From: a virus
Taxonomy: Duplodnaviria > Heunggongvirae > Uroviricota > Caudoviricetes
DNA: 3,382 nucleotides
Virus record (IMG/VR): IMGVR_UViG_2617270938_000006
Reading direction: 5' to 3' (one strand)
How positions within the stretch are numbered: the stretch's first letter is position 1; each line of letters begins with the position of its first letter. This document shows, piece by piece, positions 284 through 3,382 of the stretch. The position numbers and the translations under genes were made by a program. Below the pieces are notes generated by a model, which worked only from the letters and a program-made list of their open reading frames with translations, searched no databases and was not told the origin of the DNA.

Positions 284-421
284 TCATACTCCTGCTCCTG
301 TCAGGGTTTTGGCGTAATTCTTCAGTATTCGGTAATCGGTCAAAACAGAACCGGGGAAACGATATAAGCGCAGACGCCCCCAGCGGTGGCGAAGAAGTTC
401 TGCCATATAAAACTCAAACAT
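284..421 (-). CDS. Small phage protein, YlcG-like by position (45 aa from the ATG overlapping the rusA stop; 40 aa if it starts at the internal ATG 406-404)
   Basis: Minus-strand frame [45 protein letters not shown], stop TGA at 286-284. The first ATG (421-419) shares one base with the rusA TGA stop (ATGA coupling). Located between rusA and Q, where ylcG lies in DLP12. Sequence identity to YlcG not verified. Confidence 0.45.
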   Translation of the reverse strand: MFEFYMAELLRHRWGRLRLYRFPGSVLTDYRILKNYAKTLTGAGV

Positions 422-783
422 CATTCATTCCCCATTTCGGTGATGGTCAGTTCCAGCCTCCCACCTTTGGTAACAGGCATCTTCACAACGCGGTAATCAA
501 CGACCTGAGCATCATCCAGCCAGAAACCTGCTTTGGTGAGTGCGTCAAAAGCGGCTTTTTGCAGATTATCCAGGTCACGGCGACGGCGATCCGGCATGTG
601 GCACTCAATACGGATTTTCACTGGCATAGCCAGGCCGATATCCAGCATTGCGTTTTTAATGATTCGGGTGACGTTATCGCGGTATGCCTGCCCTTCTGCG
701 CTGATGTGTGTGCGCCCGCGATTATGGCGGTAGTAGCGGTTATTGCTCGGCGGCCAGGGTAGTGTGATGTGGTAAGTATTCAC
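421..783 (-). CDS. rusA: Crossover junction endodeoxyribonuclease RusA (Holliday junction resolvase), 120 aa
   Basis: ORF-track protein [38 protein letters not shown]... is near-identical to E. coli RusA as I remember it. Acidic residues D70, D72 and D91 (RRDLDNL...LDDAQ) are present. Start codon is GTG (783-781) preceded by AAGAGGGGG about 10 nt upstream, with an in-frame TAA two codons upstream. Confidence 0.95.
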
Positions 784-893
784 GCCTTAATTACCCCCTC
801 TTTCAGCCAGATATTTCCCGGCCTTTCTGTTATCAGAAATCCACTGAAAGCACAGCGGCTGGCTGAGAAGATAAATAATAAACGGGAGGCGGT
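784..893. promoter_or_regulatory. Divergent intergenic joint between rusA (-) and the plus-strand operon; putative promoter/operator region
   Basis: 110-bp non-coding gap between divergently oriented first genes. Contains both ribosome-binding sites (GGGAGG 884-889 for the 894 ORF; rusA SD on the other strand), an AT-rich stretch GATAAATAATAAA (870-882) and an 8-bp inverted repeat TCAGCCAG (803-810) / CTGGCTGA (859-866). No -35/-10 pair can be called reliably by eye. Confidence 0.3.
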
Positions 894-1085
894 ATGCACA
901 AAGCATCTCCTGTTGAGTTAAGAACGAGTATTGAGATGGCACATAGCCTTGCTCAAATTGGAGTCAGGTTTGTGCCAATACCAGTAGAAACAGACGAAGA
1001 ATTTCATACGTTAGCCACATCCCTTTCACAAAAGCTGGAAATGATGGTGGCGAAAGCAGAAGCAGATGAGAGAGACCAGGTATGA
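894..1085 (+). CDS. Hypothetical small acidic phage protein (63 aa), first gene of the plus-strand operon
   Basis: ATG at 894 with strong SD GGGAGG 4 nt upstream; 63 codons; net acidic (about 11 D/E against 6 K/R). Its TGA stop (1083-1085) overlaps the ATG (1082-1084) of the next small ORF. Size and position recall the orf61/orf63-type small genes of lambda's pL operon, unverified. Confidence 0.6.
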   Translation: MHKASPVELRTSIEMAHSLAQIGVRFVPIPVETDEEFHTLATSLSQKLEMMVAKAEADERDQV

Positions 1086-1165
1086 CAACCACTGAATGCA
1101 TTTTTCTGGCAGCGGGCTTCATATTCTGTGTGCTTATGCTTGCCGACATGGGGCTTGTTCAATGA
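1082..1165 (+). CDS. Candidate 27-aa hydrophobic micropeptide MTTTECIFLAAGFIFCVLMLADMGLVQ (single predicted transmembrane helix)
   Basis: Absent from the ORF track (too short). ATG 1082-1084 overlaps the upstream stop as ATGA; its own TGA stop (1163-1165) overlaps the ATG (1162-1164) of the downstream ORF, again as ATGA. It bridges exactly the 77-nt gap between the two flanking ORFs. About 20 consecutive hydrophobic residues. Confidence 0.4.
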   Translation: MTTTECIFLAAGFIFCVLMLADMGLVQ

Positions 1166-1377
1166 CACCTCAGCAAGAAAACGCCCTTCGCAGCATTGCC
1201 CGTCAGGCTAATTCTGAAATCAAAAAAGCCAGACAGCATTTTCCGGATAAAAACGTCGATGACATTTGCCGTAGCGTACTAAAGAAGCACCGCGAAACGG
1301 TAACGCTGATGGGATTCACACCGACTCATTTAAGCCTGGCGATCGGCATGTTGAACGGCGTCTTTAAGGAACGGTGA
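1162..1377 (+). CDS. Hypothetical small basic phage protein (71 aa)
   Basis: Frame of track ORF 1096..1377, but I favour the internal ATG at 1162 (MTPQQENALRSIARQANSEIKKARQHFPDKNVDD...) because it is stop/start-coupled to the micropeptide and the 1096 ATG has no SD. Net basic (about 12 K/R against 7 D/E). Function unknown. Confidence 0.5.
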   Translation: MTPQQENALRSIARQANSEIKKARQHFPDKNVDDICRSVLKKHRETVTLMGFTPTHLSLAIGMLNGVFKER

Positions 1378-1398
1378 ACATGAAAAGCAAAATCATCA

Positions 1399-1426
1399 GG
1401 GAGCTACAGGCTCCTTTTTTATTATT
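1399..1426 (+). terminator. Putative Rho-independent terminator
   Basis: GGAGC (1400-1404), 5-nt loop TACAG, GCTCC (1410-1414), followed directly by TTTTTTATTATT (1415-1426); 22 nt past the stop at 1377. The stem is only 5 bp (extendable to 7 with G-U/A-U at the cost of the U-tract), so strength is uncertain. Confidence 0.35.
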
Positions 1427-1475
1427 CGCATTTACCCTCAAGCGTATTAACCAACAATTCAGGGATTAATGAAAG

Positions 1476-1694
1476 ATGGCAGACATCATTGATTCAGCAT
1501 CAGAAATCGAAGAATTACAGCGCAATACAGCAATAAAAATGCGTCGTCTGAACTACCAGACTGTATCCGCAACTCATTGTTGTGAGTGTGGCGATCCGAT
1601 AGATGAGCGAAGACGCCTAGCTGTTCAGGGTTGTCGGACTTGTGCGAGTTGCCAGGAGGAGATCGAACTTAAGAACAAACAATGGGGACTGTGA
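1476..1694 (+). CDS. TraR/DksA-family C4 zinc-finger protein (72 aa), likely RNA-polymerase secondary-channel binding regulator
   Basis: Exact C-x2-C-x17-C-x2-C spacing (Cys35, Cys38, Cys56, Cys59: HCCECGDP...GCRTCASCQ), the DksA/TraR zinc-finger signature. N-terminal D3-x-x-D6-x-A8 (MADIIDSA) matches the DxxDxA tip motif of this family. AGGGA about 10 nt upstream of the ATG. Confidence 0.85.
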   Translation: MADIIDSASEIEELQRNTAIKMRRLNYQTVSATHCCECGDPIDERRRLAVQGCRTCASCQEEIELKNKQWGL

Positions 1695-1741: not shown

Positions 1742-2020
1742 ATGTTCAGAATCATTTTTCCTAACACCTGGTACGTCGACCACCACGGCACTCCCTGCAA
1801 AATCCTGCGTTCTACCCACAACAAAGTTCACTACATCCGAAAAGGCAGAACATGTATCGCCAGCATGTTCCGCTTTAATCATGACTTTGAACCTGTGAAT
1901 AAAGCTGATGCAGATCGGATAGCAGAAGAGATCGAAACGGCAGAACACATTAAGAAGTTACGTGACATGCGTTCAAAAAGCAGAGGTAACCATGGAATCA
2001 TACAGCCTCACACTCGATGA
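1742..2020 (+). CDS. Hypothetical phage protein (92 aa) immediately upstream of, and overlapping, xis
   Basis: ATG at 1742 with SD GAGGTG 5 nt upstream. Overlaps the xis start by 29 nt in a different frame. The core WYVDHHGTPCKILRSTHNKVHYIRKGRTCIASMFRFNHDF loosely resembles small DUF4222-type prophage proteins as I recall them, unverified. Confidence 0.55.
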   Translation: MFRIIFPNTWYVDHHGTPCKILRSTHNKVHYIRKGRTCIASMFRFNHDFEPVNKADADRIAEEIETAEHIKKLRDMRSKSRGNHGIIQPHTR

Positions 2021-2363
2021 GGCCTGTCAGTTTCTTAAGATATCCAGACCAACCGCCACCAACTGGATACGAACAGGCCGCCTACAGGCAACACGTAAAG
2101 ATCCAACCAAGCCAAAATCTCCTTACCTCACAACACGGCAAGCCTGCATTGCGGCGCTTCAGTCTCCGCTGCATACTGTCCAGGTGAGCGCGGGTGATGG
2201 CATAACAGAGGAAAGAAAATGTCACTCTTCCGCAGAAATGAAATATGGTATGCCTCGTATTCGCTCCCGGGCGGGAAACGAATTAAGGAATCTCTTGGCA
2301 CAAAGGACAAGCGGCAAGCTCAGGAGTTGCACGACAAGCGAAAAGCAGAACTCTGGCGAGTAG
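1992..2363 (+). CDS. xis: Excisionase (Xis), AlpA/Xis-family helix-turn-helix DNA-binding protein; 123 aa if the frame is read to its stop
   Basis: ATG at 1992 with SD AGAGGT 4 nt upstream (the track's 1962 start is a GTG without SD). N-terminal [37 protein letters not shown] is a typical excisionase HTH/wing and matches my memory of P22/DLP12-type Xis. Lies directly upstream of int. The frame stays open to 2363, 145 nt into int in another frame, so the 3' boundary is less certain than the 5' end. Confidence 0.75.
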
Positions 2364-3382
2364 AAAAGCTAGGGGATTTACCTGATGTCACTTTTGAAGA
2401 GCCCTGCCTAAGATGGCTTGAGGAAAAAGCTGATAAAAAATCTCTCGATTCAGATAAAAGCCGGATTGAGTTCTGGCTTGAACATTTTGAGGGTATAAGG
2501 CTTAAAGATATCTCGGAGGCAAAGATTTACTCTGCTGTAAGCAGAATGCATAACAGAAAGACGAAAGAAATATGGAAACAGAAAGTTCAGGCCGCCATCA
2601 GGAAAGGTAAAGAACTGCCTGTTTATGAACCAAAGCCAGTATCAACTCAGACAAAGGCAAAGCATCTTGCCATGATAAAGGCCATTCTCCGTGCTGCAGA
2701 ACGCGACTGGAAGTGGCTGGAAAAAGCGCCTGTCATCAAGATACCAGCGGTCAGAAACAAGCGAGTCAGATGGCTGGAAAAGGAGGAAGCAAAACGCCTT
2801 ATTGATGAGTGCCCCGAACCACTGAAATCTGTCGTCAAGTTTGCGCTGGCAACTGGTCTGAGAAAGTCGAACATCATAAATCTGGAATGGCAACAAATCG
2901 ACATGCAGCGACGAGTTGCCTGGGTGAATCCAGAAGAGAGCAAATCAAACCGCGCCATTGGTGTGGCGCTGAACGATACCGCCTGTAAAGTGTTGCGTGA
3001 TCAAATAGGCAAGCATCACAAATGGGTGTTTGTACATACCAAGGCGGCTAAGCGAGCAGATGGAACATCAACGCCTGCGGTCAGGAAGATGCGCATCGAC
3101 AGCAAGACATCATGGCTATCAGCTTGTCGTCGTGCAGGAATTGAAGATTTCCGTTTCCATGACCTCAGACACACCTGGGCAAGCTGGCTGATTCAGTCAG
3201 GCGTCCCATTATCAGTGCTTCAGGAAATGGGCGGATGGGAGTCCATAGAAATGGTTCGTAGGTATGCTCACCTTGCGCCTAATCATTTGACAGAGCATGC
3301 GAGGAAAATAGACGACATTTTTGGTGATAATGTCCCAAATATGTCCCACTCTGGAATTATGGAGGATATAAAGAAGGCGTAA
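2219..3382 (+). CDS. int: Phage integrase, tyrosine site-specific recombinase (P22/DLP12 IntD-type), 387 aa, complete
   Basis: ATG at 2219 with SD GAGG about 7 nt upstream; TAA at 3380-3382. N-terminus [33 protein letters not shown] and C-terminus ...[29 protein letters not shown] match my recollection of P22 Int / DLP12 IntD. Catalytic signature visible: R215 (TGLRKS), H314-x-x-R317 (FHDLRHTW), Y349 (VRRYAHL). Confidence 0.95.

Follow-up and report, generated by a model that had tools for sequence, protein, structure and literature searches.

Introduction

The question raised by this locus is whether a small open reading frame within a defective prophage encodes a working regulator of host transcription and whether, in that setting, it is likely to be expressed. 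Proteins of the TraR type give phages and plasmids a ppGpp-independent means of imposing a transcription programme that resembles the stringent response, a capacity that is established for Orf73 of phage lambda. In the window, by which we mean the whole 3,382-nt stretch of DNA that was analysed, the best explanation as a whole, to which we give a probability of roughly 0.88, is that the reading frame is an intact ortholog of lambda orf73, encodes a TraR-type regulator of RNA polymerase (RNAP) and persists as a mostly silent passenger in a prophage relic. This copy of orf73 is an ordinary one, already described and annotated, and it adds nothing new mechanistically. The remaining interest is whether the promoter-less relics of the DLP12 type, which are very common in E. 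coli, ever express such toxic regulators, since relic-borne regulators of this kind, if expressed, could affect growth or stress tolerance.

Results

The reading frame (Table 1) encodes a protein of 72 amino acids, MADIIDSASEIEELQRNTAIKMRRLNYQTVSATHCCECGDPIDERRRLAVQGCRTCASCQEEIELKNKQWGL. The original prediction of a TraR/DksA-like regulator had pointed to an N-terminal DxxDxA motif and to an exactly spaced zinc ribbon, and both were found: the tip motif corresponds to D3, D6 and A8, and the predicted ribbon reads C35-x2-C38-x17-C56-x2-C59. Two extra cysteines, C36 and C53, which had gone unmentioned in that prediction, are also present. The arginine pair R46/R47 aligns with R48/R49 of TraR, and the protein carries E64, an acidic residue of the C-terminal helix, together with an ExxRL motif, as in lambda Orf73. 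A comparison with the zf-dskA_traR profile had been proposed as a check; residues 33-64 matched PF01258 on profile positions 4-35 of 36 with 37.3 bits (E = 2.8e-9), above the Pfam gathering cutoff of 24.9 bits. The window protein also matched PHROG 54, 'DksA-like zinc-finger protein' (E = 3.6e-26), and its best NCBIfam match was TIGR02419 (C4_traR_proteo; 53.9 bits, E = 2e-14, residues 3-64 on 1-64 of 64), which narrowly missed the curated cutoff of 59.7. A sequence search of the PDB returned YbiI (2kgo) and TraR (5w1s/6n57), the alignment to TraR spanning residues 1-69. Identical proteins are already on record, as RefSeq WP_000763385.1, named 'TraR/DksA family transcriptional regulator', and as the product of gene SfI_0031 of phage SfI (100% identity, tblastn of phage genomes). 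The TraR/DksA-like identification is thus borne out by the profile match, the tip, the zinc ribbon, R46/R47, E64 and an identity of 87% to lambda Orf73; judged by its sequence, the reading frame is an intact ortholog of lambda orf73 and belongs to the short TraR branch of the DksA/TraR family. Two minus-strand reading frames that overlap orf73, at 1617-1721 and 1669-1824, were set aside as spurious for want of family support, and the 'zinc-binding protein' YdaE of the K-12 Rac prophage was ruled out as a homolog, BLASTP having given no alignment.

Table 1. Coordinates of the features in the window, counted from its first nucleotide
Feature	Position	Strand	Basis and remarks
rusA (Holliday-junction resolvase)	421-783	-	PF05866, 80.9 bits; RefSeq in relatives; directed away from the exo-xis genes
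Deletion junction, ybcO 3' end (minus strand, 784 to about 811) / orf60a interior	784-813		Alignment with 2G7b and LR-64-1
orf60a (DUF1317) 3' remnant, last 36 codons, no start codon	811-921	+	Translations of window and lambda orf60a
orf63 (DUF1382)	894-1085	+	PF07131, 106 bits, full length; PHROG 292
orf61-family gene, full length	1096-1377	+	PHROG 303, 1-93 of 101, E = 1.3e-42
Mini-ORF, 29 aa, MKSKIIRELQAPFLLFAFTLKRINQQFRD	1380-1469	+	ATG at 1380, stop TAA ending at 1469; spans the hairpin, ends 6 nt before the orf73 ATG
Predicted promoter p1: -35 TCATCA, 1393-1398; -10 TTTTATTAT, 1417-1425	1393-1425	+	BPROM, PMC4195576
Intrinsic-terminator-like hairpin AGGGAGCT-ACA-GGCTCCTT with T-run ('t2', Bloch et al. 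2014)	1398-1425	+	Terminator scan: hairpin 1398-1416, T-run 1415-1420
Shine-Dalgarno-like AGGGA, 10 nt before the ATG	1461-1465	+	Read from sequence
orf73-type gene	1476-1694	+	ORF list, Pfam, PHROG, lambda identity; ATG at 1476, TGA at 1692-1694, stop codon included
DUF4222 gene, in lambda's ea22 position	1742-2020	+	PF13973, 69.4 bits; PHROG 285
xis (excisionase, 123 aa)	1992-2363	+	PHROG 2907, 2-117 of 117, E = 5.9e-46; SfI annotated alike
intD-type tyrosine integrase, 387 aa	2219-3382	+	PF00589, 159.7 bits; annotated intD in relatives

The predicted fold points in the same direction, with modest scores. An AlphaFold2 (AF2) model, built on an alignment of 43 sequences, consists of a helix at residues 5-23, a zinc knuckle and helices at 44-49 and 57-70 (mean pLDDT 74), the N-terminal helix being only moderately confident (pLDDT 57-66). 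In a Foldseek search of the PDB the matches came in the order TraR 6n57_M, YbiI, TraR 5w1s and then DksA, the top one with probability 1.00, a TM score of 0.56, an rmsd of 4.7 A and E = 2.5e-3. The E-values are weak, as is to be expected of a 72-residue protein; the ranking is nonetheless specific. For a model of lambda Orf73, an rmsd of 4.0 A was put down to helix angles (PMC8614690), with which the 4.7 A obtained here agrees.

The motifs are conserved well beyond the window. The C4 spacing recurs in 113 of 123 distinct full-length relatives, and of these C4-bearing proteins 101 carry DxxDxA and 8 more ExxDxA, 107 carry the arginine pair and 112 carry E64; D3, D6 and A8 were invariant in one family alignment. 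The two extra cysteines differ in this respect: C53 hardly varies (110/113), whereas C36 is variable (29/113). Of 5426 complete E. coli genomes, about 3296-3299 (61%) have the gene at a coverage of at least 80%. A scan of IMG/VR with the family alignment returned only copies that are 94-100% identical, which were of no use for covariation; diverged orthologs, with 49-76% protein identity, were taken from a genome collection and come from Enterobacter, Citrobacter, Lelliottia, Siccibacter and others.

The surroundings of orf73 are those of a lambdoid exo-xis region. Its genes follow the order orf60a'-orf63-orf61-hairpin-orf73, upstream of xis-int, as in lambda and in phage 2G7b, an intact phage with the order N...gam-bet-exo-orf60a-orf63-orf61-orf73-DUF4222-int. 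The product of the orf61-family gene has 93 residues if translated from the ATG at 1096, or 71 from the ATG at 1162 as annotated in RefSeq, and this copy is full length whereas that of lambda is split by a frameshift. The xis and int genes overlap by 145 nt, as in SfI, and in related genomes a tRNA-Arg gene (argU) directly follows the integrase. Alignment with 2G7b and with E. coli LR-64-1, where the order is rusA-ybcO-ninE-ybcN', revealed a junction at about 811-813, at which the last ~29 nt of ybcO are joined to the interior of orf60a. Lost in this deletion were exo, bet, gam, kil, cIII, N, pL, the repressor gene cI, pR, the O-P replication genes and the left nin genes, and the break falls within the loop of the predicted terminator t1 (t1 sequence from PMC4195576). 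A 35-mer across the junction was found only in E. coli PK8566 among the fetched loci, a genome in which DUF1317 is annotated as incomplete, and a search of the species-representative genome collection gave no exact copy of it. The window prophage is a relic of the DLP12 type at argU; because the deletion took pL, N, the immunity and the replication genes, it is defective, as the original prediction had it, and orf73 is left without its native promoter and antiterminator. A search of the whole window against Rfam at E<=1 returned no RNA family.

Upstream of orf73 lies the terminator-like hairpin to which the original prediction alluded. Its folding energy is -10.2 kcal/mol (z = -2.5). Lambda has the hairpin without a single base changed; Bloch et al. 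(2014), who named it t2, found lower mRNA levels downstream of it (PMC4195576). Hairpin and adjoining T-run are kept in 14 of the 16 distinct upstream sequences of the diverged orthologs, and the stems vary with compensatory changes (GGGAGC/GCTCC, GGTCGC/GCGGCC and GGTCGC/GCGACC); a further stem, GGGAC/GTCCC, lies inside a full-length gene. Retention of the hairpin and the T-run across differing stem sequences makes a good comparative case for a functional structure. The Shine-Dalgarno block that follows takes the form (C/A)GGGAG in diverged relatives (Enterobacter and Citrobacter loci).

The hairpin is spanned by the mini-ORF of Table 1. Of 31 loci examined, 20 have kept it, with varying genes upstream of it and always with its end 1-6 nt before orf73, either as an ORF of 29-39 aa or as the C-terminal end of an ORF of 64-74 aa. 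In three loci (L131, L141 and L150) its C-terminal motif ends a protein of 74 aa, and the one that was scanned, from L131, matches the Orf61 family (PHROG 303); a PHROG search with the mini-ORF peptides themselves, which are too short, gave no match. Because the 74-aa relative matches the Orf61 family, the mini-ORF is a truncated paralog of the 3' end of orf61. In its frame the Nei-Gojobori pN/pS ratio was 0.19-0.80 in 21/21 pairs, and in the other two frames it was mostly about 1 or more; this indicates that the mini-ORF is under coding constraint. The 98 nt before orf73 are not a non-coding spacer. Phage SfI has it annotated as the hypothetical SfI_0032. According to a review, ribosome profiling of lambda detected a peptide of 31 aa in the exo-xis block. 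The lambda version of the mini-ORF is 31 aa, the same length as this profiled peptide. A terminator placed inside a translated mini-ORF that abuts orf73 might, speculatively, provide translation-dependent read-through together with translational coupling, and its conservation there is a small clue to the control of orf73 expression.

The original prediction had also proposed that the gene could be expressed independently if its upstream terminator were functional. This part found no support, because a terminator insulates a gene and does not drive its expression; pL is gone, and a sigma-70 scan detected no plus-strand promoter anywhere in the window. Manual reading of the junction spacer (784-893) and of the leader (1426-1475) yielded only poor hexamers. 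The only candidate, the weak predicted promoter p1, is retained in sequence and overlaps the terminator; its -35 element matches 3/6, its spacer measures 21 nt if the -10 is taken as TATTAT and 18 nt if it is taken as TTTTAT, and the sigma-70 scan of the window did not report it. In phage 24B treated with H2O2, orf73/ea22 transcripts stood above those of upstream genes (Bloch et al. 2014, PMC4195576). From the lack of a recognisable promoter in the window and the toxicity of lambda Orf73, we infer that orf73 is silent or nearly so in this relic, and the ~10^4-fold cut in plating efficiency caused by lambda Orf73 argues against appreciable constitutive expression.

Discussion

The experiments that had been proposed with the original prediction were already done on lambda Orf73 (Gopalkrishnan et al. 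2022, PMC9239242). The purified protein binds RNAP in competition with DksA and, without ppGpp, inhibits rrnB P1 with an IC50 of about 50 nM, and rpsT P2 as well, while its D3N and D6N variants are defective (PMC9239242). In vivo, induced lambda Orf73 complements a dksA null strain, and its expression from pL slows growth and lowers plating efficiency ~10^4-fold, whereas the phage yield is ~4-fold higher with the protein (PMC9239242). Activation of promoters is weak if any, unlike that by TraR, and the two extra cysteines may be the reason (PMC9239242). With 87% identity to the protein so tested, the window allele can be expected to share its RNAP binding and promoter effects.

By analogy with lambda Orf73 and with TraR of the F plasmid, the 72-residue protein would bind RNAP without binding DNA. 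Its N-terminal helix would enter the secondary channel and bring D3, D6 and A8 near the active site, the globular zinc-ribbon domain (C35, C38, C56, C59 and R46/R47) would sit on the rim helices and beta'Si3, and the C-terminal helix, through E64, would touch betaSi1. Open-complex kinetics would be altered in this way, and promoters of rRNA and ribosomal-protein genes inhibited without ppGpp. In a functional lambdoid phage, orf73 would be an early gene of the pL operon, reached when N-modified RNAP reads through the upstream terminator, and its product would turn host resources to lytic growth. In the relic of the window, orf73 is most likely silent, or at most a weakly and sporadically expressed passenger, and owes its intact state to recent descent or to exchange with lambdoid phages that are still active.

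Other readings of the locus have to be weighed against this one. At the level of the phage, the main role of orf73 could be not to raise the lytic yield but to act with ea22, ea8.5 and orf55 in blocking the initiation of host DNA replication and so favouring lysogeny. The work cited on this subject in PMC9239242 (refs 21, 22 there) and PMC8614690, as summarised there, describes an inhibition of host replication initiation by the orf73-ea22-ea8.5-orf55 cluster, and a lower host survival and lysogenisation upon deletion of orf73. Point and in-frame mutants without Orf73, however, gave a ~4-fold lower yield and had weak effects on dnaA transcription (PMC9239242); in the window ea22, ea8.5 and orf55 are absent, a DUF4222 gene being found instead, and the prophage is unable to replicate or to lysogenise. 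We regard a pro-lysogenic main role as unlikely. That the protein is a generic small zinc-ribbon protein like the uncharacterised YbiI, with no function on RNAP and a merely coincidental tip motif, is hardly credible. YbiI is indeed its best PDB sequence match (1.2e-5), but only over the zinc-ribbon half, whereas TraR aligns over the full length (residues 1-69), DxxDxA, the RR pair and E64 are nearly invariant in the relatives, and lambda Orf73, at 87% identity, binds RNAP biochemically and depends on D3 and D6.

A domesticated modulator of the host, as suggested in the original prediction, is a further possibility, one that we consider rather improbable. Here orf73 would have its own promoter at or after the terminator and would serve, independently of both pL and ppGpp, to slow ribosome synthesis, oxidative stress being one possible occasion. 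Consistent with this, a strongly conserved upstream segment of ~98 nt moves with orf73 as a module behind different genes, BPROM places p1 at exactly that place, orf73/ea22 mRNA exceeded that of upstream genes in H2O2-induced 24B (PMC4195576), and orf73 is intact despite the loss of pL and occurs in 61% of complete E. coli genomes. Nevertheless, the conservation upstream is accounted for by the coding mini-ORF, the terminator and the Shine-Dalgarno sequence; p1 has a -35 element of 3/6, its spacer is 21 nt long unless a poor -10 is accepted, and it was missed by the promoter scan; expression of lambda Orf73 is strongly growth-inhibitory; and an intact gene is to be expected where many active lambdoid phages bear near-identical copies and recombine frequently. 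More far-fetched still would be an orf73 module that is a self-contained, conditionally expressed unit, with a terminator gated by the mini-ORF and a redox switch at C53, co-opted in promoter-less relics as a stress-triggered, ppGpp-independent ribosome brake. If this very doubtful scheme were true, read-through at the terminator would depend on whether the mini-ORF is translated, and the zinc ribbon would owe its redox response to the extra cysteine. In terms of that scheme, C53 is a clade-specific and nearly invariant fifth cysteine.

An intact, mostly silent ortholog of lambda orf73 remains the preferred reading, and its place among known systems can be described in some detail. TraR of the F plasmid (5W1S, 6N57), with 73 aa, has the same length class and three-element architecture, and shares D3, D6, A8, Cx2Cx17Cx2C and R48/R49 (R46/R47 in the window protein). 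It is only about 30% identical, however, and has four cysteines against six here; it activates amino-acid and tra promoters, which lambda Orf73 does weakly if at all, and its gene belongs to a conjugation operon and not to a phage pL operon. Against NF010268, the equivalog model of F TraR, the window protein scored 25.8 bits, the cutoff being 108, so that by sequence it is a homolog of F TraR and not an ortholog. E. coli DksA shares the C4 zinc finger of PF01258, the DxxDxA tip and the binding site in the secondary channel of RNAP. DksA proper has about 150 aa and an N-terminal coiled-coil and depends on ppGpp, whereas the window protein has 72 aa, a single N-terminal helix and no coiled-coil in the AF2 model, and is ppGpp-independent by homology; Foldseek matches of the model to DksA were weaker and partial (E 0.08 to 1). 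YbiI of E. coli (2KGO) is a short zinc-ribbon member of the family that, though first by E-value among the PDB sequence matches, aligns with residues 31-67 only, and the window protein reached 42.8 bits against NF008243 (YbiI), with a cutoff of 96. Orf82 of phage P2, another tested phage homolog of TraR, is likewise a short zinc-ribbon protein of the DksA/TraR family; its tip is without A8, and lambda Orf73 exceeds it about 5-fold in activity (PMC9239242).

The closest of the known systems is lambda itself, where orf73 (alias Orf2310) lies on the minus strand at about 30,396-30,614 and is unannotated in NC_001416. BLASTP aligned the two proteins without gaps at 62/71 identical residues (87%) and 94% positives, the window protein being one residue shorter than the 73-aa lambda Orf73. 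The 9 substitutions in the 71 aligned positions sit in the linker and the extreme C-terminal tail, mostly in the tail at 61-72, which has diverged (EEIELKNKQWGL in the window protein vs EDLELISKQRGSK in lambda Orf73), and only four fall in residues 1-60 (H27Y, A29T, I30V and V49A). The two loci differ also in what surrounds the gene: DUF4222 follows orf73 in the window and ea22/ea8.5 in lambda, the integrase is of the intD type at argU and not lambda int, and unlike that of lambda the window orf73 resides in a deleted prophage without pL. On the upstream side they are alike, with the same terminator, mini-ORF and ribosome-binding region, the same gene order orf60a-orf63-orf61-orf73 and about 97% identity over the 100 nt before orf73. 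Both proteins have DxxDxA, six cysteines including 36 and 53 (the 'TraR positions 38 and 55' of PMC9239242), ExxRL and the acidic residue of the C-terminal helix, and the residues highlighted in PMC9239242 and PMC8614690, namely the tip, the C4 ligands, ExxRL and the acidic residue, are all present in the window protein.

Coding Features Flanking orf73

Directly upstream of orf73, the gene for the TraR/DksA-family protein, a mini-ORF encloses the hairpin of the intrinsic-terminator-like element and ends just before the orf73 start codon (table below). Comparison of loci showed that this mini-ORF is kept in diverged Enterobacteriaceae prophages, and sequence comparison revealed a substitution pattern of the coding type. 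Its peptide is homologous to Orf61-family proteins, at their C-terminal end, and the annotation of Shigella phage SfI, whose orf73 product is identical, lists it as a hypothetical protein. Ribosome profiling of phage lambda reported a 31-aa peptide, and the mini-ORF may correspond to it.

Features identified in the window besides orf73
Feature	Position	Strand	Remarks
Deletion junction, ybcO 3' end joined to orf60a interior	784-813		
27-aa ORF, strongly hydrophobic (MTTTECIFLAAGFIFCVLMLADMGLVQ)	1082-1165	+	Other frame; overlaps orf63 stop and orf61 start region
orf61-family gene, full length, 93 aa from ATG at 1096	1096-1377	+	PHROG 303 matched over 1-93 of 101
Mini-ORF, 29 aa (MKSKIIRELQAPFLLFAFTLKRINQQFRD)	1380-1469	+	Terminator hairpin inside; stop 6 nt 5' of orf73 ATG
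Excisionase ORF, 123 aa	1992-2363	+	PHROG 2907 matched over full length

The orf61-family gene is unsplit in the window, whereas in the phage lambda locus (L003, 3213-3525, minus strand) a frameshift divides it into ORFs of 61 and 60 aa, a difference consistent with the remark in the literature that lambda Orf61 appears truncated. The hydrophobic ORF overlapping its start region matched no family in Pfam or PHROG, and could encode a small membrane peptide. Further downstream, the excisionase ORF shares 145 nt with the integrase gene and is annotated in the same way in SfI. In near-identical E. coli relics, the RefSeq annotation at this position is confined to a 66-nt pseudogene labelled 'incomplete helix-turn-helix', a call that is probably an artefact of annotation.

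Deletion Junction and Distribution of the Lambda Allele

Bloch et al. (2014; PMC4195576) predicted a terminator, t1, and the deletion junction of the window sits within its loop. E. coli PK8566 has an identical 35-nt junction; there it belongs to a prophage that occupies a different attachment site, adjoins ybhC and carries a lambda-type integrase. In strain 14EC033 the left endpoint coincides with that of the window, but the right one lies within orf61, at approximately window position 1278; in LR-64-1 the junction is different again, with ybcN' joined to orf60a'. Among the DLP12-type relics, breakpoints are shared or recurrent.

The lambda allele was also retrieved from dozens of assemblies of unrelated organisms, including Shewanella, Bradyrhizobium, Streptomyces, Paenibacillus and Helicobacter (loci L094-L125). 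These copies show a uniform 84-87% identity to the window protein and lie on contigs of low coverage, several of them about 48.4-48.5 kb long; they are almost certainly phage lambda DNA contaminating the sequencing libraries.

Additional Cysteines of the Protein

Besides the four zinc-ribbon cysteines, the protein carries a fifth, C53 (codon at 1632-1634), within the motif G-C-x-T-C, and a sixth, C36. Among the 113 full-length relatives bearing the four cysteines, C53 is nearly invariant across the Orf73 clade (110/113) and C36 is variable, being present in 29. At the position equivalent to C53, the TraR protein of F has a valine. C53 could act as an alternative zinc ligand or as a redox-sensitive site. 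In their study of lambda Orf73, Gopalkrishnan et al. (2022; PMC9239242) speculated that the extra cysteines explain the missing promoter activation.
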